Numbered from the stretch's first letter, positions 3,620 to 17,200 are shown. The stretch: DNA of 64,000 nt from Takakia lepidozioides (GCA_030704615.1 CM060734.1:50530001-50594000); one strand, 5' to 3'. The notes: a model not told the origin generated them from the letters alone. Translations and numbers: made by a program.

Positions 3620-3990
3620 GGCATTCACCTTTTTGCCTTGATTATGTCCCAGCTAATATAATGTGCAACAGGTTTCCTAAAGTCAGCAAGGACCCGCTTG
3701 TCCTTTTCCAGGGTTCCAAATTTGGCACATGCATTGAGAATGAACGTGACCCTGTTCGACCTTACCCCTTCATGTTGCATTTGCTCGTAGGTCTCAAAAA
3801 CATCTCTGCTGCACCCATACAGAGCACATCCTACAATCGCTGAACTCCAAGGGACAATATTTCATTTTGCCATATTGTTGAAACTTGACATGCATAGTTC
3901 ATGCTCCCACATTCGGCATACATGTCAGCAAGGGCAGACTCCAGTAAGCGCTAATCCAGTTTTAACAAAGTCAGCGTGTATCTCTAAGCA
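3620..3990 (-). pseudogene. Degenerate PPR fragment
   Basis: Minus frame reads ...ETYEQMQHEGVRSNRVTFILNACAKFGTLEKDK with stops nearby. Confidence 0.7.
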
Positions 3991-4179
3991 GACAGAGATT
4001 GAAACACGGTCTGGCAAGACCAAGCTGACTCTCGCAAAAACCTTGTACACATCAGGAAGAATACCAAATCATGGTACTAACAGGAGGTAGAGATTGAAAC
4101 ATGGCCTGGCAAGAATATGTTGTGTGTGCTGCTTGTGTCTGTAGTCAGATAATGTTGGATCGATCAGACATACAAAATT

Positions 4180-4278
4180 TGACGACGTACGAAACGTGGC
4201 GACGATGACGTGGCACTAAGGCACCTTATTCCTACTCTACGCTAAACTAGCTCTCGACCTTCGGTCGTTGCTAGAATT
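4180..4278 (+). mobile_element. Helitron-like 3' end (hairpin + CTAG); related copy at 25390-25520
   Basis: cgaccTTCGgtcg hairpin followed by ttgCTAG; shared gacgtggc...ctctacg..aaa...ttgctagaatt with the second copy. Confidence 0.4.
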
Positions 4279-4864
4279 TCTGAGAACAACATCCAGATAG
4301 ATGGACTATATTCAAGTTTTATGAAATGATGAACATGTATTGGCTCTCTTGTATATTAGAGAGAGACTACACATAATGTTAAAGTGAAGTGAGAAAATGT
4401 GGTCAAAGAAAGCAAGAGAGTCCATTGCAATTTGAGGCTTGTTTCATTTGATATTAATTTTACGAGTGTAATGATTTTGGCTCGTTTTGATACAACAAGT
4501 AGATTTTGATTTTTTTTTTGTTTTTTTTTAATAGAAGGAAACCTCGGACTGACAGCCCACAAATCAGGTCCTTGAGGAGGGGGAAAAATGAACCCCCTTT
4601 CATTTATGTGCCATGAGACCTAGGGATTATGAATGTTGTTTATATGATCATCTTTATTTTCAATTGGTTTTGATTTGAAATCATTGCTCAGAGCTCGCGG
4701 AGAGACCCCCAATATTGGTCTCTTTCAGGAAGCTTCCTTTTGAGGAAACTTCTCCATCAAGAAACCTCCATTGGGGAAGTTCTTAGGGAACTTCCTAGTA
4801 GCCAATATATATAGGAGGCGAGACTGGACACTCTTCAGTCTCGCCAACACAAGTTCAAGCTACT

Positions 4865-4995
4865 CTTGTTTCCAGTCCTAGTACTCCAGTCCAGCTTCCA
4901 GTACTCTAGTTCAGTTTCCAGTATCTGGTACTCCAGTCCAGTTCCCAGCATTCAAGTATTCAAGTCGAGTTCTAGTATCTTGTACTCTTGTCCAT
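4865..4995. repeat. Degenerate short-period tandem repeat (ccagt / tactc units)
   Basis: Repeated ccagtcc, ccagtac, tactccagt units. Confidence 0.55.
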
Positions 4996-6136
4996 TGTTA
5001 TAAAGATCATCTTGATTCATGTTTATCCATCATGCATTCGGTCACGCCGACCTTGACTTCTTGTCTAGTCTTGTACCTCTAGTTTGATCTCTTGTTTGTG
5101 TTTCAGTCATGTTCTCGTCCTTGACACTTAGTGAGAATGGTGTGCCATGTGGTGGGACATGCAAGGTTATAGCAGTGGATGTAAATGAAAGGCGGCTACG
5201 TATGCTCACAAAGATCGCGCAGCAGTAGGGCGTGGATGACATTGTCACTTCATACCACTATGACCTTCGTGATTTTGCGGTGCCCGAATCTTTTAGTTAA
5301 TTTTGCTGATGTTTAGCCATGCTTTTCTTTCCCAACCATCTATGGGAAGTTACAGACGGCCATAATTTTGCCAGGTTTTGTCCATATACGGTAGTCTTTA
5401 AGACTTTAAGATTAGAGAGCTTGCATGAATGTTCAAATCTAGGAATTTGGGATCTCTTGTTGACATTTGTGGTTATTGCTACAAAATGGTTATAAACAAA
5501 ATATTTACACAGTTTAATTAGCGACTACATGGTCGCATTTGTCATTGTTATCTTCCATTGTAGTGATTTGCAAAGTTGTGATAATTGTTATGGAGTGAAA
5601 TAGTGAGAAACTCATAGATTGTGGACAGTTATATGTTTCACCCATGCATGTGTGAGTCAAACGGTTTTACTGTTTAGCTCCCACTGTTTAGTTAATGTGT
5701 AGTGAAATCTTTTTTTAATCATAGTGATGTGTTCTTTCCCTACACGTGCAACCTCCCAATTTCACTATGTAGTACAACACAAAACTAGAACTCTAGATTC
5801 TGCTGCACAAAAATTAGACCTCTAGACTCCCAATTCACTATATAGTACTACACGAAACTGCAACTTTATACCTCATTGTGAAAGTACACACTATTTGTAG
5901 TATTCATATATTCTTTCTCACCAAATAAGATTGTGACACATGGCTTCTTAGTGAACTACCTCACTATATGTTCACCTATAGTAGTTGAATATATTCTTCA
6001 TTCCTAGTGATATGATACCACTACTAGGGTAGCCTGTGCCATTGGCCCAAGTGTCCAGTGTCATCTAATTCCAAGTGCAATCTCATATGTATCCATAGAC
6101 CCTTGTGTTTGAGAGATCTAGGCCTAGGGTAGCATG

Positions 6137-6221
6137 TGTCGTGCGCATACATATTGCTAGACAACTACATCGCTATCCAAACCACACCACACATATATGC
6201 ACAATAAAGTAGTCTACCACA
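6137..6221 (-). repeat. Terminal repeat block A1 (85 bp)
   Basis: Direct repeat of 6577-6661 with 3 substitutions. Confidence 0.95.
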
Positions 6222-6222
6222 A

Positions 6223-6574
6223 TGATAAACAAGCATAGAGACACTGTTGACACAAAACATATGAAATCCATCGCTATTACTCTTTATAATAGAAGTCGAG
6301 CCAGGGGCACCCCAAGCTATGGGGACTCCACCCCACAACAACCTACACTCCCATCATGAGTACACTCAGATCTAAACGCATGCAGGAGCTCGGTCGCGCA
6401 GGCTCAACTCGAGAGAGATGAGCTGCGCGACTGCCGCTCTCGTGAAAGATAAGACGGACCAGGTGTCAAACTAAACTTGACACCTGATTTAACACTTGAC
6501 CTAAATCCAAGTGTTAAATACAAATAACTAGTTTTATGCTAGCTGTTTTCACACTGTGCTTATTTAACTTGACA
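6223..6574 (-). repeat. LTR block B1 (352 bp)
   Basis: Direct repeat of 11129-11479; about 2 substitutions and one 1-bp indel seen. Confidence 0.95.
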
Positions 6575-6576
6575 GC

Positions 6577-6661
6577 TGTCGTGCGCATACATATCGCTAC
6601 ACAACTACATCGCTGTCCAAACCACACCACACATATATGCACAATAAAGTAGTCTACCACA
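6577..6661 (-). repeat. Repeat block A2, directly downstream of the polypurine tract in element orientation
   Basis: Minus strand: AGGGGGGcgat-TGTGGTAG...CACGACA-gc-TGTCAAG. Confidence 0.95.
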
Positions 6662-6920
6662 ATCGCCCCCCTAGCTGGTGGATAGGTCCCTCTACCTCCA
6701 GATAGCTACAAGACGTAATAGCCATAGCCGTACTAAGTCCTGTATCACTGTCCCTATCGTACTCAAACTCTATAGATCAAGAGGCCGGGTGCAAGAGTAG
6801 CCCCATCGTTAGTCGCCGTCTGGCAATCTGTGAACTTGAGCCAGGACTTCGTGTATTCAAGGTCTCCTGTAGAAGGGCCTTGCGTGGCTTGTTAGCCTCC
6901 CATGGTTGTATCCACTCCCA

Positions 6921-8168
6921 CTATCCAATGCATTGTGGACATAACCAATCCCCATTTGGAACCATCTCAAGAGGTGGAGTCAAGCACCCCATATGCCAAC
7001 CTCTAGAGCATCGATCACACACCAGCATGGTGGCTGCCCCTTTAGCAGACCCACACAACATGCACCTCAAACCTGCAGATACCACTGCCAGGTTTGGGTC
7101 AATCCTGCCATCGACATTTGGAAGGTGACATGGCGCACAATTACGCACATGGTCCTTCCAAGTTATGCCATCCCGACCCTCCAAGACCAAGACGCCTGAG
7201 GGCAAGACCTCTCGAACCCTCAAAATAACACGTCCTGCAGTCACATCCAGGGTCGTAGGAGCAGTCTGCTGCAGATAGACATAGTCACCAGGGTTGAATC
7301 TCCGAACCCCAGGACGATAGCCCCCACCACGTATGGTAGCATACCTCAACGTATCACGGTGTTGTGCAATGGCAAGGTTCTCGAAAGCCATGGGCATGAC
7401 TCTCTTGAACAACTCTGCACGCTGCTCACATGCACGGGCCCACACGTCCGGATCATCAAGGTTAAGAACTGTAGCAGCTTCTCTGCGAATGGATGTAGGC
7501 AAATCCGGCTCTCGGCCAAAGAGAAGAAAGTATGGTGAGAAGGAGGCAAGTGATGCTTGCTTGCTGAACCTGTAGCCCATGGCTAACCAGGGTAACTGAA
7601 GGTCCCAATCTCCTAGGTGTCCCTTCTGCAAGCCATACTTGCGCAAACCCCTCTTTACTGTCTGAACAACTCTCTCTGCCAAGCCATCGGCTTCAGGATG
7701 ATCCCGAGAAGTGGTGCGGTGGTCTATCAAGGCCTTGTCACATAAAGCCTGAAACTCCCCCAAGAACTCTCTCCCTTGGTCCGTGAGTACCTCAGCTGGA
7801 GCACCGAATCGGCTAAGCACACAATCCAGGAATGCATACGCAGCTCCCTCACTAGCCTTATCAGGCAATGGAACCAATTCAATCCACTTGGAGAAGTGCT
7901 CCACCATCACCAACACGTACTTGTTGTGGCGCATGGTCAGTGGCAACGGCCCTGCGAAGTCAAGACTCAACCTGTAGCCCAATCCCATGATCGGAAGAGG
8001 GTGCAATTGTGGAGTAGGGGCGTTGAATGAAGCACGCACCCTGTCACATACCATGCACCTAGCCACAAATTGTTGCACCTCTGTGTGCATACCACGCCAC
8101 CAATACTGCCCCTGCAGTAGACTATGAGTGCGTCGCACCCCAAAAATGCCCCAACTCCTCATGGGCAT
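6921..8168 (-). CDS. DDE integrase with C-terminal PHD finger (frameshifted from RT-RH near 8145)
   Basis: YWWRGM..CMVC zinc motif, SLDFAGPLP, VLTDQGREF, DGLAERVV; ends CMLC...CDRC..GWHMGCLTPPL..VPNGDWLCPQC (C4HC3). Confidence 0.92.
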   Translation of the reverse strand: MPMRSWGIFGVRRTHSLLQGQYWWRGMHTEVQQFVARCMVCDRVRASFNAPTPQLHPLPIMGLGYRLSLDFAGPLPLTMRHNKYVLVMVEHFSKWIELVPLPDKASEGAAYAFLDCVLSRFGAPAEVLTDQGREFLGEFQALCDKALIDHRTTSRDHPEADGLAERVVQTVKRGLRKYGLQKGHLGDWDLQLPWLAMGYRFSKQASLASFSPYFLLFGREPDLPTSIRREAATVLNLDDPDVWARACEQRAELFKRVMPMAFENLAIAQHRDTLRYATIRGGGYRPGVRRFNPGDYVYLQQTAPTTLDVTAGRVILRVREVLPSGVLVLEGRDGITWKDHVRNCAPCHLPNVDGRIDPNLAVVSAGLRCMLCGSAKGAATMLVCDRCSRGWHMGCLTPPLEMVPNGDWLCPQCIG

Positions 8169-10365
8169 GCCGCACTAACCGTGCCCGCTGTGTTGGGTGA
8201 GGCACAATCCTCACTCGACCATCCTCCCACACTCGGAGCAGGTGTGTCCCCTCCCACCTGAACGTCTTGGCTCGTTGTAGGATCCGATCCCTCTCCTTGG
8301 CAGTCATAGTGGCTGTCGTGTCTCCACTGCGGAGGTAGTCCAACACAACTGAATCCTCATGTATATCTTTGGCGCCACCCTGCTCATTGCTGGCCTCAGG
8401 GTCCTCAGACACTTGATCTACAGTCATCCCTGTTGTAGGTCCAACCTGGCCTTCCGCTGCCAAGATACACAGAAATGCAGATGCATGCCATCCGGGCACC
8501 ATCTCCTCGTCCGTCTCACCATGCCACCGAGCTCCAGTGTCATCCTGCTGGCTCGTGCATGGATTGCGACTCAACCCATCTGCATTTCGATTGACCAAAC
8601 CCGGTCGATGCACCACCTGAAAGTCATACTCTTGAAGGATGAGTGCCCACCGTGCAAGCTTCCCCGTAAGCTTGTCTGACTCCATCAACCACTTGAGTGG
8701 TTGGTGATCCGTGACAAGGGTGAAGAGATTGCCGTATAGATAGCACCTGAAGTGTGCCACGGCCCACACTGCAGCTAAGCATTCTCCCTCATATGAGCTA
8801 TACTTAAACTCTGCAGCATTGTTCGAGCGGCTAGCATAAGCCACTACGAACTCTCTTCCCTCATCATCCACCTGTGTGAGCACCGCTCCAAGCCCCAGCA
8901 TGCTCCAATCTGTATGCAGCTGAAAAGGACGCCCCCTGATAGGTCGTCTCAAGATGGGCGCCGAGGTCAACCTCGCCTTGAGCTCTTGAAAAGCTTGTTC
9001 TTGCTCATCTTCCCACTGCCACTCCTGGTCCACCTTGGTCAGCTTGGTTAGAGCCTTTGCAATGGCACTAAATCCCTTAACAAACCGTCTGTAATAGTTT
9101 GCTAACCCCATGAAAGCTCGAACTCGGCTCACATCCGTGGGGCGTGGAACCTGTGCAATGGACTCTACCTTAGTCTGCTGTACCCCCAATCCTCCAGGAT
9201 ATATCATGTGACCCAGATACTCAATCTGGTTGTGGAAAAACTTGCACTTGCCCGGATGTAACTTCAATCCGTGCGTCCTCAAGCGCTCAAATACCCCCTG
9301 AAGGTGTCTCTCATGCTCCTCCACCGTAGCACTAAAGATGATGATGTCATCTATGTAGCACCGAGCAAACTCCACCCCTGCTAGAATCCTGTCCATGACT
9401 CTTTGAAACTCAGCGGGAGCGTTTTTAAGCCCAAATGGTAAGAACCGCCACTGGTATAGGCAATCCTTCCCGTGCTCATTGATCCCCCAGAATGCCGTCT
9501 TTTGCTTATCCGCCTCCTTGATCGGCAACTGGTGATATCCGGATCGTAAATCCAACGTGCTAAAGACCTTGGAATGCCCAATGGCATCAAAGATCTCCTC
9601 TGGTGTTGGCATGGCATACCTATCGGACTTGGTCTGACGATTTACAGGCCGGTAATCACCACACATACGTCTCTCCGTCCAATTGCCATAGACATCCTTC
9701 TTAGCTGGCATCACTGTGGCTGAAGCATACTCTCCACCAGAGAGCTCCACCAAACCTGCCTCCCAGAGATCTTGAGTCCTCATCTGAATCAAAGACCTCT
9801 CCATGTCACTGTACCTATAGGGTCTCCGAAAGATTGGCGTGTCAGTGGCCAACTCAATACGGATCTCTTGACCCTTCAGTGCTCCCAAGTCCTTCAAACT
9901 GAAGGCAAAGCAATTCCTATAAGCCCTCAGGAACCGCCGTATACGTCGTCTCTCTCCTCCGGTGACAATGGGTCCAATGTCAGGCTCCCAATTGTCCTCC
10001 GTAACTGCAACCTTAAGTCCAGTGGGCTTAGAGGTAGAGGACGCGTCCCGTGGTTGCTATGCTGCAACCTCTTGAGCAGTACCCCCTTCCTGCTCAGTCA
10101 ATGACAAGGCCTCATCCTGCCCCATCATCTCATCATTGAGAACCTCCTCATCCCGAGAAGAATCCCCAACCTCATCCATCACAGCTGCCTTCGCTGCCAA
10201 CTCCCTCTGAACCTCGAGCACCTCCCACATGTGCCATGGATGTCTACACCTCGTGGTCCTCACCGGCTCGCCCCACTCGCTGCCTGTACCGTCTCGGTAG
10301 GCAGAGAGACCGTCAAGGAAGTGCACTCCGCACTCTACGTTGCTCAGCCATAGCCAAGCTGACAA
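8122..10365 (-). CDS. Gypsy reverse transcriptase and RNase H (in-frame TAG at 10057-10059 in the upstream linker)
   Basis: RMCGDYR, LDLRSGYHQ, PFGLKNAP, YIDDIII, HTDWS, TDHQPL, NADGLSR. Confidence 0.95.
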
Positions 10366-11030
10366 TCCAGGTCAAGCAATTGAGATCCATTGCTTGCCCC
10401 AACACCTGACGACGTGATGCCTCAGAAAGAGAAGGCACCGCCGTGGTCCCAGTGGAAAACCCCATAGCCCGCTCTCGCTCGTCGGCATTAGGCTCCACTA
10501 ACTGCTGCAACTGAGCATCCCACAGGAGGCCAGGTCCACCATCCCGAAAAGCATGGGATCCTGGGAAGCTGAGCAGTGTAGGTAATGCTGTTCGTGGTTG
10601 ACCCACCCTGTTGACCACTGCCAAAGGCGAACGGTCATCGTGTCTCACACGTTGAGACTGCCTTCCTGTGTCCAAAATGTTATCCACGGTGAGGTGTGCT
10701 GGCCGCTGCACCCCATCAAATGCACGCTTGAGCAGTGCGGGTGGCATAAAGTTAGTCCACCATAGTCGTGGACGATGAGCCCGTGACCCCACTGCAGCTG
10801 CATCCAGCAACACTGCTGACCCAAGCCACGACCGGACTTGATGCACACTGGCCATCACCCTGGCCCGAGAATCACCCATCAGTGGTACATTCTCCAAGAT
10901 GTATGCTGGAGATACGGCTTGATGAAGCTGCAAGCAGCGCAAAATCCGCACCATCTCCCAAAACAGACCCGTCCTCGAGTCTCGCAATCCATTGCCATGC
11001 CCGGCTGATGAATGCCCTTGGCAGGGCCAG
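10313..11030 (-). CDS. DNMT3-like C5-cytosine methyltransferase catalytic domain (N-terminal motif I missing)
   Basis: WPCQG (motif IV), YILENV (VI), AHRPRLWWTN (VIII), ERERAMGF (IX), RRQVLGQAM (X). Confidence 0.88.
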
Positions 11031-11112
11031 ATGGACTCCCGCCCCAAGATATATATTATAATAATGCTAAAACAAACATTGTATCTAGCTTAGCACCAGC
11101 ACACTAGATAAC

Positions 11113-11128
11113 GCTCATCTCTCTCGAG
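11113..11128 (-). promoter_or_regulatory. Self-complementary primer binding site
   Basis: CTCGAGAGAGATGAGC abuts block B2 and is complementary to 6408-6423 and 11314-11329 inside B. Confidence 0.8.
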
Positions 11129-11479
11129 TGATAAACAAGCATAGAGACACTGTTGACACAAAACATATGAAATCCATCGCTATCACTCTTTATAATAGAA
11201 GTCGAGCCAGGGGCACCCCAAGCTATGGGGACTCCACCCCACAACAACCTACACTCCCATCATGAGTACACTCAGATCTAAACGCATGCAGGAGCTCGGT
11301 CGCGCAGGCTCAACTCGAGAGAGATGAGTTGCGCGACTGCCGCTCTCGTGAAGATAAGACGGACCAGGTGTCAAACTAAACTTGACACCTGATTTAACAC
11401 TTGACCTAAATCCAAGTGTTAAATACAAATAACTAGTTTTATGCTAGCTGTTTTCACACTGTGCTTATTTAACTTGACA
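11129..11479 (-). repeat. LTR block B2 (5' end of the element)
   Basis: Near-identical to 6223-6574. Confidence 0.95.
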
Positions 11480-11749
11480 CATGTGTCATTGGCCCATGTG
11501 TGAAGAATTGAAATCTAAGCCAAATGCAATCTCATATGTATCCAAGTGCTTCTCCCATGTAGAGGCCCAAGTGCGACCTCGAGTGTCCAATGTCATCTAA
11601 GTCCAAGTGCCCCTATGCATCCTGAGACCTTGCAGTTTGGGAGATCTCCACATCATTGTTCCAACAAAGCCCACTTTGCTTTTTTGCAATCTCCCTTGTC
11701 GAGGCTTCATATATTGATATATCCACTTTGCTATTTTTTGCGAGTTTCC

Positions 11750-11955: not shown

Positions 11956-12784
11956 ACACTGCGGGTCCGAAAATATGAGACCAAGCCGGTGCACCGCTCC
12001 TCATCAAGGGCTTTCCAACGTGGCACCAAGCTCTATAGGGGACTCATTCAATTCCTAGCTACTAAGTACAATGGCCTTTACTCCAGGCTGCCAACCCTTC
12101 ATCCCCAATCCTGCCGCCATTCTCCCACCGCTAGAACTCTATATTATACATCTTACGCCAAATGAACATTAGAATACAAACCGATCTCCCTGGCTATCCT
12201 AACACCATCTCACCCCTTGAAGTCGTCTGGCTTAACAGTCCATCTCTCCCTGAATTTGAGGAACTTCACCCCTGCCAAAAAACGCTCATACTTGCTTACT
12301 TTAAAATCAGACACATCACGACACTTACCCAACTCACCACAGCCTTTGGCTATAGACTACTCTCACCCCGAGAGTTCACTCTCAAATACTCCAGAGCCAC
12401 TGTCAAAACATGTCAATACATGTCCCTGCTTCGAACCCTTTTCTGCCACAAGACTCCCTCATGTTCTCTTGAGTGCGACCTACCATGCAAACTCTTTCCC
12501 CATAACAAACTAGACCTTCTTCCTCAATATAAAACACACCCAGCCCCATCTATTCTAAGTATGATGGCAGCACATAAAGCTCACCCTGACCCTTCAAATT
12601 CTAACACCCCTCCCATGTCGCCTTGCCACTCTATGTCCCCCTCCCAAATGACCAATTCAAACTTGACCATCCCTCTGGCTCAACCACCCCCCACACCCCC
12701 ATCCAAACCTCCTCTACCCCGCTTACCCCGACCAGCCCGCCCTCGCCGGCCTCAACCCCGAGATATATTAACCCAGACAATCCG

Positions 12785-12932
12785 GAAGCCTTCATTATCG
12801 AAGCTATTCTAGGGATCAGAACTCAGATCACCACCGACAAATTTGGCGCCACATGCCTAGACACTTTCTACTTATGCAAATGGGTTGGGTACCCATCGGA
12901 AGATAATACCTAGCAAGCAGAGGACGACCTAT
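12785..12932 (+). pseudogene. Chromodomain within the LINE ORF (TAG at the conserved W)
   Basis: FIIEAILGIR...FYLCKWVGYPSEDNT*QAEDDL. Confidence 0.75.
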
Positions 12933-13380
12933 TTGGGTCCCATGAGGACTGTGACTCGGTCCACAACCTTAACATCCTCACCGCATTTCTTAAGTCCACT
13001 AATACCAACTACCTAGCCCATACCCACCAACAACACACTTCCCAAACCCAATCGATGGACGCCCGGTACGTCCATAACCCCCTAGTTGCCCCCGAGGTAC
13101 ATGTCTGCATCACAGAATGCAATCCTGACAAAGACATTCTACACACCTCCCCTATAATACGCTCCGGCAAGCACCTGTCCAAGTTATATGCCTCACATGG
13201 CTGCTTCATTGGTCTCATTCCTAATGACAGACTCACCTGGCTATGGCACAGATTCTCAAATTCAAACCCGCCACCTAGCCTACTCACGCCCGCTAAACAA
13301 GACTTCGCTACTAAAGTCTGCTGGCTCATGGATCGCTACTTGACTGATACCCCCTCCAAAAACCTCGCTCCCTCCTCAAG

Positions 13381-13700
13381 CTAAGACAAGCCCAATCCCA
13401 TATTACCCTTCCACCGGACATACTAGCACTCCTTATAAACTCCTTCCAAATTACACACTCTTATAACTCAAGCCTACTTACATGCCCTATGGTGCTTTCG
13501 TCATACTCAAGCCCACACCCCCGAGCCTGCATATTTGGAGCCTTAGGCTCTGCCTATCAATATACGTGGACGGGCCGCGGCTTTGCACAACCGTCCCAAG
13601 GATCCCACATGCATGACGTTTTACAATGGGCTCGCCACGCAGTCCAAACATCCCCCTCTACCGCCACCATCCTCCTTCTGACTCACCAACAATTGCCAAA
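13381..13700 (+). pseudogene. PCIF1/Dam-like N6-adenine methyltransferase-like domain within the LINE ORF
   Basis: ITLPPDILALLINSFQITHSYNSSLLTCP..SYSSPHPRACIFGALGSAY..TWTGRGFAQP follows the LP..F..FASPL..Y.S...FG..G....NPP spacing. Confidence 0.5.
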
Positions 13701-14109
13701 TGGCCCGCACCCTCTCTCCCAGCTACCCCATGAGGTTACGCCTCTAGTCGCTATCGACCCTGGCATCCAATACTCTCGCACCCCGCCCCTCCCCAAGTAC
13801 CTTAAACAGCAAGAACCCACCTTAACCAGGCCTTAACCCTCATACTGCTTGTCAATCGCACGACCACAACTACCCCCATACCCGCCGACTTCCCATCTCG
13901 CATCACTGCCTTCTAACAAACACACATAGCATGAAGGTCACCACATTCCCTATTCCCCCTCCCTAACGTCCGTTACCCCCCGCCTTTACCCTAAAATAAA
14001 TTCATCCAAAACATGGTCTCGAATGCTCACCCATCCACCCATCCCCCCTACCACACCTATCCACACCGAACCTCCGCTATTCCGGACGGATCTCCTTCTC
14101 AAATACCCG

Positions 14110-14510
14110 TCTGCCCACTCCCACTACACCGACGGATCCCTCATTGCTGGTCCTAGGGCTGGGTATGGTTTCTATCACACCGCTACCAACCAAGGCATTT
14201 CCCTACGTCTCCCTAGCCCGGCCACCATCCTTCGTGCCGAGTTCATGGCCATACATGTTGCCCTCACCCAGCTCTCATCATTCCCCCCACCCCATTATAT
14301 TTTTACTGATAGTCTCACATCACTCTTTCTCATCCGCAATCACCGCCATCGACCCTCTTCTCACCACTACCACTCTGACCGGAACCTAATCATAGTTCAA
14401 ATTGCTATCTCTATAAACCAGCCCATCCACTTTCTTAAAGTTCGCTCCCACACTGGCATCACTGGCAACGAAATGGCTAACTTCTTTGCCCAACAAGGTG
14501 CCACCCAATC
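14110..14510 (+). CDS. RNase H domain of the LINE
   Basis: YTDGS, RAEFMAI, IFTDS, KVRSHTGITGNEMAN. Confidence 0.9.
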
Positions 14511-15599
14511 CGAGGTGGACCCTACGTCGGATCCCATCCATGTGGCCCATACCTACCCCTTTTGGTTCATCCACCTCGTTCCAGGCCCCACGGAGCCTCG
14601 CCCTATCCGCAATCTCTCTACCACCCTTACTCGAGTAGGCAGCAAACAAGCCTCCTCCTCTGCAAGCCACACTAAGCTACATGTCCAGAAATGGACACAA
14701 TCTGATGTGCTACACCATAAGCTGTCTTATCACTTCTGGCACACTTTAATCTCGCCACCGATGCCCAAATAAAACAGAGCCTCAAATTCAGATATGCACA
14801 ATACATGGGCCACCAATGTAAACATATCTTTTGGCCTCACCTCTTCCTTACCCAAATTGTCCACTCTATGCTTGCACCCACTTTGCCCGTGACACTTGGC
14901 CCCACCTACTCAGCCAATGCACACATCCCATCATCCATGGCCTCCGTGTCACTCGACATAACCATGTTGTTTGGCACATCCATAAGCTACTCCTACGTCA
15001 ACCTGCAACACGTTGGTTTTCATTCATCAATGCGAGGACATATCAAGGTAGGCCCCCTGACCACACTGTACCCTTATGGCTTCTGCCCTGTTCATGCCGG
15101 CCACCCTCACCCTGCACATGTCCTACCAGACTCTGTCATGACATACTTCTAGTCCACATATTGCCTATGAATGCGCCTCCGCCAAGCATCCCATCCCCAA
15201 ACCTCACCATACACTTTATTGAATTCACATATTGTAATGATCGCTACCCCAGCTCCACCACATTGGAAAAACGTCAAAAATACGCTCCGTTCGTCCTATC
15301 CGTTTGCCATCCTGGCTGGTCCACATGGGGTCCACATGCCCCCTCACGATCATTACTACCGGCACCAGAGGCGGCATCCACAATGCTAGTATCTATGCCC
15401 TTCACACTAACTTCAAAATTCCTATCTCCCCTATACACAAATGCTTCAAGGCTATCCACCTAACTGTGATTCCCTCCCTCACTGCTATTATTACCAACAA
15501 AAGGCATCTTGAATCCCATATCTCTTCAGGCTCTTGAAACTCCGTATACCCTAGGGGTACCCCCTGGGATACCTTTCCGAGCACCAGTCCCCTGAGTTA

Positions 15600-16023: not shown

Positions 16024-17200
16024 TGTCAAGTTATTTTATCACTAGTGTGAAGTTAGCTAGGAAATAGCTAGCTTTTATATATTGATATTTGGGATTGACC
16101 CAAGTGTCAATCTAGGGGCCAATACATGTTTGGGCACCTTGCGTTGTTATTTTCACGGCAGATCGCGGTGGGCTCATCTTTCTCGAGTTGAGCCTCACCG
16201 CGTCTAGCTATGGCGCCGTAGTGTGGATTCCCCATGGCGTGGGGTGCACTTGGCTCGACTTAATATATGGGTAATGTTTTCATGTGCAAGTATGTGAGTT
16301 TGAGAGAGCTTGTGTGCTTGTATCATTCAATTTCTTATCACTCGAGAAAGATGAGCTCGAGTCTGTGAGTACCAGGTTCGAGTTAGTTGTAGCACTTGTG
16401 TTTTCAGATCATGAGAAACGGTTCAGCCTAGAGTGCAGGGATCCGTGCATAAGCCTATCCAAAGCGGATAGAGTGCAAAGGTGAACAGGTTGCAGGTTTG
16501 CAATGGATAGAAAGGCGATCAATGTTGCATAGCTCAACGCTATGGCAACTGAGTATGCGGTTCTAGTGTGAAGCGGATGAGATGCTGGCCACGAGTGGGC
16601 GAACTGGTGGTCGTCTTCTTCAGTTGCAGGCCGAGTTGAGGAGCTGCAGAAATGTGGGCTGCGCATGGGAAACTAGCATGTTGCAGGTTGGAGATGATAT
16701 GATCAGCTCCAGGTATTTCTACCCGAAACTAGTTGTTGCGGGTAGATGAGGAGCAGCCGAATGGTGGAGCTGCGAGGGAATGCATCGCAGCCTGTTGGGA
16801 GCTTCAGCTCCAAACTCATGAAGAGGTACGAGTGAAGAGAGGGGGCAGATCCCTCTTGTGTGCAAATTAGTGCACTTGTGAAACATGTGCTGAGTTGGAG
16901 TTTCAATCTGAAACTCAGCAGTGCAAGGGCTCTTAGAGTGGCAAGAGCGGGGGCTGGAAGGGCAGCAACAAGGCGTCCTAGAGCCAGGGAATGTGCAGTA
17001 GAACTGCACGTATATCAAGGTTGTAAAGGTGTGTATTTTCAGATTTGTTTTGTGAGCTTCATGAAGAAAATGGAGCTTGTTGGGCAGCATATAGCTTGCT
17101 TGTTGAGTTGGGGGCGCTTCTAGTGGGCCGTGAGAGCTCAGGAGTGCAGGGCAACGGGGCTGATGGCTCCGCAGAAGCCATAGCTTGTCGGCAGCAGGTG
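16024..17200 (+). mobile_element. Related Gypsy relic: B-type LTR (16024-16340), PBS (16341-16356), decayed gag-like region; 3' extent uncertain
   Basis: Starts TGTCAAGTT, ends TTATCA; shares ctcatct.tctcgagttgagcct, ccccat..c.tggggtgc.c.tggctcgactt with the reverse complement of block B. Confidence 0.8.

Follow-up and report, generated by a model that had tools for sequence, protein, structure and literature searches.

According to the textbook view, long terminal repeat (LTR) retroelements integrate through the tips of a linear DNA, and their circular forms count as dead ends. In Klebsormidium nitens, de Mendoza et al. (2018) have described KnitGypsy-Dnmt3, a Gypsy element that includes a Dnmt3-type domain, and the legend of Fig. 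4c in that paper states a DIRS-like layout of the repeats for this Gypsy-type element (PMC5890265). In the main text and three supplementary text files of the same paper we found no termini, duplications, analysis of the primer-binding site (PBS) or polypurine tract (PPT), or mechanism, the supplementary figures not being searchable. Here we describe a similar element from Takakia lepidozioides, found in a stretch of 64,000 nt (GCA_030704615.1, CM060734.1:50530001-50594000), which as a whole is referred to below as the window. The element occupies positions 6137-11479 (5,343 bp) on the minus strand, between two copies of CATG. Like KnitGypsy-Dnmt3, it has a Gypsy-type pol, a C5 DNA methyltransferase (DNMT) domain and a DIRS-like order of repeats; unlike KnitGypsy-Dnmt3, it is nearest to liverwort proteins (73-77%) and keeps only a part of the DNMT domain. 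It represents, in the liverwort lineage, the kind of element first drawn for Klebsormidium. The first-pass annotation of the window, which knew of no description of such an arrangement, was mistaken in this respect, the layout being already known, although only from that one figure legend.

Several other described systems share particular features with this element. For DIRS-1, the circular stage is itself only a long-standing model (PMC7192593). The integrases of foamy virus and HIV-1 have been reported to cleave palindromic LTR-LTR junctions (PMC1180852, PMC1905944). Self-priming of reverse transcription is the arrangement of Tf1/Sushi elements and has been predicted for the plant element Tcn1 (PMC6317226).

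Repeat layout of the window element and its relatives

Read in its own orientation, the window element consists of B (351 nt), PBS, internal part, PPT, A (87 nt), the dinucleotide GC, B (352 nt) and A (87 nt), all on the minus strand. The 5' copy of the B block (B1, 11129-11479, delimited by self-comparison) begins with TGTCAAG at the very end of the element, with no A block upstream, and is adjoined by the PBS, CTCGAGAGAGATGAGC (11113-11128). At its other end, the internal part (6664-11128, between B1 and A1) carries the PPT, AGGGGGGCG (6664-6672), immediately 3' of which lies the internal copy of the A block (A1, 6577-6663). The boundary between A1 and the 3' copy of the B block (B2, 6223-6574, again beginning with TGTCAAG) is the palindrome GACA-GC-TGTC (GACAGCTGTC, 6571-6580, with the spacer GC at 6575-6576), which we propose as the cut site of the integrase. 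The element closes with the terminal copy of the A block (A2, 6137-6223), ending in ...CGCACGACA; base 6223 is common to A2 and B2, and the join between the end of B and A2 (hereafter the B/A join) lies at 6221-6223. Identity amounts to 96.6% between A1 and A2 (87 nt) and to 99.1% between B1 and B2 (352 nt). Probes taken from the termini, 18 and 19 nt long, match in exactly two places each, and two matches were reached in none of 100 shuffles. The full A-NN-B unit (NN being the two-nucleotide spacer) is thus found only inside the element, whose ends are B (5') and A (3'). Two identical full terminal LTRs, as expected of a Gypsy element, are absent; TG...CA termini with a short target-site duplication are present, in the form of TGTC...GACA between CATG and CATG. 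We also considered B alone as the LTR, given that it starts with TG and ends with CA, and ruled this out, because the duplications flank the start of B1 and the end of A2 and not the end of B2.

Much of this had been proposed in the first-pass annotation. Direct reading and self-comparison bear out the permuted order B-PBS-internal-PPT-A-GC-B-A, and the clean CATG duplication is present at 6133-6136 on the 3' side of the element and at 11480-11483 on the 5' side. The TGTC...GACA ends do fall at the palindromic A/B boundary, and the B/A join is where it had been placed. Removal of the element was said to restore a local repeat unit, and the flanks joined without it indeed align across the junction to the neighbouring unit at 6023-6053, with 28 of 31 core matches. 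As for the PBS, its adjacency to B stands, but it is complementary to the middle of B, as a self-priming site would be, and not tRNA-like.

The named proteins nearest to the reverse transcriptase (RT) open reading frame (ORF) of the window element are those of liverworts (Calypogeia, 74% identity; Marchantia, 77%; Riccia), and the Marchantia RT match also carries PF00145. The next matches come from Klebsormidium and Closterium (41-53%), the retrotransposon proteins of K. nitens being 43-44% identical. A scan of metagenome contigs based on the RT alignment yielded 80 loci, which were classified by self-comparison and by maps of four motifs (the start of B, the end of B with the PBS, the PPT with the start of A, and the end of A). 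Five duplicates were dropped (L018 = L019, L025 = L023, L028 = L027, L040 = L041 and L063 = L057), and L004, which has a B/A join but in which A1 was not found, was excluded from the counts. In L006, A2 is truncated. Five loci of a sister subclade (L011, L012, L037, L064 and L072) and L017 could not be classified, as neither repeats nor a junction motif were found in them.

The permuted layout is a property of the clade and not a one-off. The order B-int-A-NN-B-A, in which the PPT is followed by A-NN-B-A and then by flanking sequence, occurs in 17 non-duplicate elements, the window element included. In three more, A-NN-B is followed by an end, which in L007 and L038 is that of the contig cutting the element, while in L030 A2 was not found. 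A shorter form, B-int-A, with flanking sequence directly after PPT-A, is present in eight elements, four of which are complete with duplications, perfect in three of them. The mirror form, B-A-NN-B-int-A, was encountered at none of the 18 readable 5' ends, all 18 of which run from the flank into B and the PBS without A-NN upstream. Ordinary copies with the LTR at both ends, which the first-pass annotation had named as the observation that would speak against it, did not turn up among the classifiable relatives, every one of which is permuted. In the RT tree all permuted elements lie within one clade with two deep branches, the B-int-A copies being scattered among the others, and L058, L066 and L080, the three loci in which the LTRs form an ordinary pair, fall outside it. 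This is a quick tree, calculated with FastTree from 75 rows of at least 70% cover, with stop codons read through as X.

The termini of the classified relatives and of the window element are all of the TGTC...GACA type, more precisely TGTCA(T/A)G... and ...ACG(A/T)CA. In the nine complete elements, the flanking 4-bp duplications match at 32 of 36 positions and are perfect in five (CATG, ATAA, TTTT, GTTT and TACA), compared to 13 of 32 positions for the next 4 nt outwards in eight of these elements; the 3' end of L027/L028 is too degenerate for scoring. The spacer between ...ACA and TGT... at the boundary of A and B is exactly 2 nt long in 20 of 20 junctions, and reads GC, AC, AT or GT. B1 and B2, as well as A1 and A2, are alike within a copy (80-99%), while the same blocks are about 70% identical or less between subfamilies. 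RT, RNase H, PPT and PBS are kept across the clade down to about 40% RT identity. The family is very abundant in reads of the window's organism label (57,997 contigs in run X1), in which the A-end terminus is adjoined by differing sequences in 11 contigs of run X1 and seven of run X4 (loose ends at 6577, agreement 0.43-0.47). As a separate observation, two different B-int-A copies of the window-like clade, L015 and L016, have TACAC directly after the end of A, and L015 also has TACA before the start of B, which may reflect a target preference or chance.

The window itself contains the relic of another member of the family at 16024-16359 on the plus strand. It consists of a B-like block, about 70% identical to B, followed by the PBS-like CTCGAGAAAGATGAGC, and it starts with TGTCAAG without any A block upstream, as had been noted before. 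No PPT, A block, coding part or 3' end was found downstream of it. The relic belongs to a second subfamily of the same family.

The signals for reverse transcription occupy constant positions: A starts directly after the G-run in every element in which A1 was found, and in every element examined the end of B passes directly into a conserved PBS motif. Because the PPT adjoins A and the PBS adjoins B, the LTR of reverse transcription would be A-NN-B, and the borders of the repeats coincide with the ends expected for the plus- and minus-strand primers of a linear complementary DNA (cDNA). The PBS is complementary to the middle of B and does not resemble a tRNA. The complementarity extends over 15-16 nt in the window element (11314-11328 in B1, 6409-6424 in B2), and 16 nt in the relic; in L032 and L019 it is exact over 13 and 11 nt, respectively. 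For none of these four was the value reached in 1000 shuffles. In the large clade, TTAGTTTTTCTAGA at position 163-183 of B lies opposite TCTAGAAAAACTA in L019, L027, L032, L039 and L057, and with one change in L041, while L053 exhibits a covarying variant at position 183 of B; the partner of the PBS inside B of the relic likewise carries a compensatory change. When the RNA of the window element is folded from the B complement to the PBS, a long-range stem closed by the PBS pairing is obtained (-89.5 kcal/mol, z = -4.99). A shuffle test of the pairing with G:U pairs allowed is weak in the A-rich clade, where many shuffles reach 10-12 of 14 pairs, and the PBS coordinates were off for L007 and L015; exact matches, position and covariation were used instead. 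Taken together, these features suggest a self-priming, Tf1-like PBS, which would presumably be used as such.

Origin of the permuted layout

The ends that were integrated, i.e. the start of B and the end of A, are the two halves of the A-NN-B junction and not the tips of the LTR. On the 3' side of the element, the end of B and the start of A lie next to each other just as they would if the two tips of the linear cDNA had been joined. Moreover, since the two copies of each block are alike within an element and divergent between elements, both would be remade from one template in each cycle. The most economical reading is an intermediate with an end-joined LTR-LTR junction. We think it likely, if by a modest measure, that the B-int-A-NN-B-A form arises from the joined ends of reverse-transcribed DNA, which the integrase would then cut at GACA-NN-TGTC inside the PBS-side copy of the LTR. 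According to this scenario, the RNA would start near the complement of the PBS in the middle of B, as in Tf1, and reverse transcription would yield a linear DNA with A-NN-B LTRs, whose B-end and A-start would be joined, be it in a two-LTR circle or in some other molecule with a corresponding LTR-LTR junction. The DDE integrase would nick 3' of each CA of the palindrome, at sites 2 bp apart, and leave two recessed CA-3'OH ends with 2-nt overhangs, the usual substrate of strand transfer, for insertion with a 4-bp stagger; duplications of 4 bp fit a DDE integrase. Opening of the joined-ends molecule at the PBS-side palindrome would reproduce the observed order exactly, and the internal A-NN-B copy would pass the full ends into the next RNA. 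The B-int-A copies could have resulted from cutting of both palindromes, from a one-LTR circle or from later recombination between A1 and A2.

If generalized, this scenario describes an entire, old Ty3/Gypsy clade of streptophytes in which joined-ends DNA, probably circular, would be the obligatory precursor of integration, the att site of the integrase would be GACA-NN-TGTC inside the LTR instead of the tips, and every provirus would be a circular permutation; we regard this broader proposal as evenly poised between being right and being wrong. Strand transfers that start from the PBS and PPT as observed were also tried as a direct route to B-int-A-B-A, including the use of a 3' RNA tail as a second plus-strand primer, and no scheme gave the terminal A.

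Several observations weigh against the cutting of a joined-ends molecule. No circle, no extrachromosomal read spanning the junction and no cDNA end was observed in the runs, which consist of short contigs, none of which spans A2-B2-A1; in the one run that we guess to be RNA, the contigs stop at the borders of the repeats and are silent on the ends of transcripts. A symmetric two-LTR circle has two identical palindromes, and their random use predicts B-A-NN-B-int-A and B-int-A-NN-B-A in equal numbers, yet the former accounts for none of the 18 readable 5' ends against 17 elements of the latter, with no sequence feature to account for the bias. The choice of site must therefore be biased, as selection cannot clear such dead insertions from the genome; a nicked junction made by the RT or an accessory site near the PBS are our guesses as to why the PBS side would be preferred. 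The metagenome copies are, in addition, old and degenerate, and come from few sampling campaigns. Finally, of the 14 elements of the large clade, seven have a B/A join that is exact and blunt; in the other seven it deviates by 1-3 nt (in one case about 10), and the deviation is on the B side in all of them. In the window element, L006 and L008, which belong to the window-like clade, the CA at the end of B is followed by A without its first base, which is exact if priming starts one base later.

The variation of the join was considered as proof of fresh end-joining and rejected as such, because L041 and L049, which are sisters in the RT tree, share the same deviation of -2, and because slippage in AT could produce it. 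The variation is partly lineage-specific and neither proves nor excludes ligation in each cycle. The first-pass annotation had suggested that this family circularizes its cDNA and that its integrase uses an att site in the LTR. The layout, the duplications and the palindrome agree with this suggestion, whereas the equal frequency of mirror forms that it predicts is not observed; its mechanism is the best available reading, with about even chances of being correct.

The same family of permuted elements could also be explained without ligation, if the RT itself created the adjacency of B and A, the plus strand jumping between template ends from the end of B to the start of A, or if two cDNAs were joined head to tail, and if the integrase picked the start of B and a downstream end of A on a linear molecule longer than one unit. 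This explanation, which we consider possible but rather unlikely, requires the same sequence facts as end joining followed by cleavage at the internal palindrome, and an asymmetric, nicked or flapped molecule made by the RT could explain why only the PBS side is used; all variation of the join is, moreover, on the B side, which is the side of the minus-strand primer. There is, however, no direct evidence for such a junction, a concatemer would offer several equivalent pairs of sites and again predict the unseen mirror form, and end-to-end jumps without homology are better known from the RTs of non-LTR elements. Another reading is DIRS-like replication without an ordinary LTR stage, in which the internal A-NN-B would serve only as a bridging template, like the internal complementary region of DIRS-1, for rebuilding of termini that the transcript lacks. 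Synthesis would then lead straight to a linear DNA from the start of B to the end of A, which the integrase would insert. The repeats are ordered as in the split direct repeats A1-int-B1-A2-B2 of Ngaro and PAT (PMC8969392, PMC4157794), and the internal A-NN-B does bring the two termini together, separated by the invariant spacer. Nonetheless, such replication gives no reason for A to start exactly after the G-run PPT and for B to end exactly at the PBS in every element, we could devise no scheme of strand transfers that leads from these primers to the start of B and the end of A, and a templated B/A join would leave its indels unexplained; we judge it improbable.

It is also conceivable that the permutation happened only once and then spread at the DNA level, with no reverse transcription in each cycle; the integrase would then work on the TGTC...GACA ends in the manner of a transposase, either cut-and-paste or copy-paste. 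The termini do look like short inverted repeats (TGTCATG and CACGACA) with 4-bp duplications, but spread of this kind would not renew the likeness of the blocks within a copy (80-99%, as opposed to about 70% or less between subfamilies), nor does it agree with the very high copy number or with the fact that RT, RNase H, PPT and PBS have been conserved even between members of the clade whose RTs are no more than about 40% identical, and it is very doubtful. Split direct repeats are the hallmark of the DIRS, Ngaro and PAT groups, which raises the question of a tyrosine-recombinase element, or of a Gypsy element mobilized by a recombinase in trans. The tyrosine recombinase domain PF00589 was, however, absent from every set of ORFs scanned (the 16 ORFs of at least 80 aa in the window element, 20 ORF pieces of L007 and 48 of L019 and L041, with cut-offs of E <= 0.01 or 0.001). 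The triad of a DDE integrase is intact in a 417-aa ORF of the window element (D72, D132 and E167, with a D-E spacing of 35 residues, i.e. D,D35E), which agrees with the first-pass annotation. The 4-bp duplications (32 of 36 positions) are also at variance with DIRS elements, which are described as lacking target-site duplications (PMC8969392), and we find a recombinase origin extremely improbable. A one-off rearrangement or mis-assembly of the window locus, finally, is hardly credible: the window has a single full copy and the contigs are too short to span A2-B2-A1, but the same order recurs in 17 independent elements, many different flanks adjoin the A-end terminus in reads of the same organism label, and the layout has been reported for Klebsormidium (PMC5890265).

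Coding content of the window copy and its surroundings

The window copy is a defective, internally deleted Ty3/Gypsy-type retrotransposon. In the Pfam scan its domains follow the order RT, RNase H, integrase on the minus strand (PF00078, PF17917/PF17919, then PF17921 with PF00665). The RT-RNase H ORF (8122-10056; PF00078, 1.5e-32; PF17917, 1.2e-35) and the integrase ORF (6921-8174), which comprises an H2C2 zinc domain (PF17921, 9e-11), the rve core (PF00665, 5e-13) and a C-terminal PHD finger (PF00628, 1e-10), are in different frames, with the break within 8122-8174, and 10057-10371 is in yet another reading frame. Upstream in the element, an ORF at 10313-11089 (minus strand) contains a partial C5 DNMT domain (PF00145, 1.4e-8, profile positions 70-156 of 324). 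Its similarity to the DNMT ORF of L007 begins at residue 142 of the latter, which corresponds to window position 11029 (tblastn), and it is at this position that contigs continue into different sequence, 38 of them from run X1 and one, 5 kb long, from run X9, of another organism label. Compared to the full-length relative L007, about 4 kb are missing, a stretch that in relatives holds the gag-side and protease regions and the beginning of the DNMT domain. Neither gag nor protease was found in the window copy by the Pfam scan of its ORFs. The DNMT domain (PF00145) is also present in L007 and L019, a protease match in L041 (PF13975, 6e-6), and protease, DNMT, RT, RNase H and integrase domains were all recovered from the ORF pieces of L019, L041 and L007. 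At position 8142, 145,426 of 592,993 in summed contig depth of run X1 differ from the window and about three quarters match its state, which may indicate that a defective subfamily has been amplified, presumably by mobilization in trans.

The element is surrounded by a satellite-like array (5990-6136 and 11484-11700), in which flank repeats pair 6050-6078 with 11582-11610, 6071-6095 with 11520-11544 and 6035-6054 with 11482-11501. The satellite units around the element are joined in several registers by contigs. In one contig, a satellite unit passes at position 6068, via GT, directly into the A-end terminus, and this junction would mark a further copy of the family inserted into the satellite. 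Between the element and the relic, the plus strand at 12135-15537 carries other retroelement remains, with an RNase H match (PF00075, 2.6e-13) at 13930-14772, a weak chromodomain match at 12605-12913 and a strongly negative GC skew of -0.37 to -0.46; no RT, integrase or recombinase match was obtained in the ORFs scanned there. Local repeats were also noted in some of the metagenome loci. A pair of 919-nt direct repeats (3956-4867 and 8931-9847) inside the large-clade element L057/L063, one copy of which lies within the RT match, has the appearance of a second LTR element nested within the first, and unrelated local repeats and tandem arrays are found beside family members in L023/L025 (11340-11515, 13409-13592) and L037 (16350-16719).

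Implications and comparison with described retroelements

In the literature searched, the name KnitGypsy-Dnmt3 was found in no other paper, and we encountered no other description of split direct repeats with a Gypsy element or a DDE integrase, or of LTR elements associated with PHD, DNMT or Marchantia. The mechanism appears to be undescribed in that literature, and, as far as our searches reach, neither the family-wide termini and duplications nor the invariant spacer, the self-priming PBS and the absence of the mirror form are in print. We are dealing with a large and ancient family, extremely abundant in at least one genome of the plant lineage, in which RT, PPT, PBS and the DDE integrase have been kept and the provirus is always rotated. 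If the proposed route is true, the family would show that joined-ends molecules are regularly opened at an internal site by a DDE integrase, and would explain how split direct repeats come about in the absence of a tyrosine recombinase. The family would then provide a natural case of the long-abandoned circle-junction route of retroviral integration, as well as of convergence with the tyrosine-recombinase retroelements, and the old question of circular precursors could be put to the test in a host that is easy to work with, for example a liverwort or Klebsormidium. For annotators it would be a warning, as LTR finders will mis-call or miss a permuted clade.

The element is like an LTR retrotransposon in its reverse transcription and insertion chemistry, but it is built without two terminal LTRs. 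In the order of its repeats, A1-internal-B1-A2-B2, the window family resembles Ngaro, PAT-like elements and VIPER (PMC8969392, PMC4157794, PMC7192593), and, if ends are indeed joined before integration, it would share with the DIRS order the passage through a joined-ends (circular) stage (PMC7192593). It differs from the DIRS order, which is characterized by a tyrosine recombinase and the lack of target-site duplications, in having a DDE integrase, TG...CA ends and 4-bp duplications. With Tf1/Sushi and Tcn1 the family has in common that the PBS is not tRNA-like and that the sequence following the 5' repeat can pair with an internal stretch of that repeat; unlike these elements, which have ordinary LTR pairs, it is permuted, and its mode of priming is predicted from the sequence (PMC6317226). 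PHD, methyltransferase, Marchantia and Klebsormidium are not mentioned in the main text of PMC6317226. The proposed integration step is similar to the cleavage of retroviral two-LTR circles in that a DDE integrase would act on a short palindrome formed by two head-to-head ends (PMC1180852, PMC1905944). However, in retroviruses the palindrome is the circle junction and the provirus has ordinary LTRs, whereas the window family has its palindrome within the LTR, and it is the presumed junction, the B/A join, that is found inside the integrated copy.

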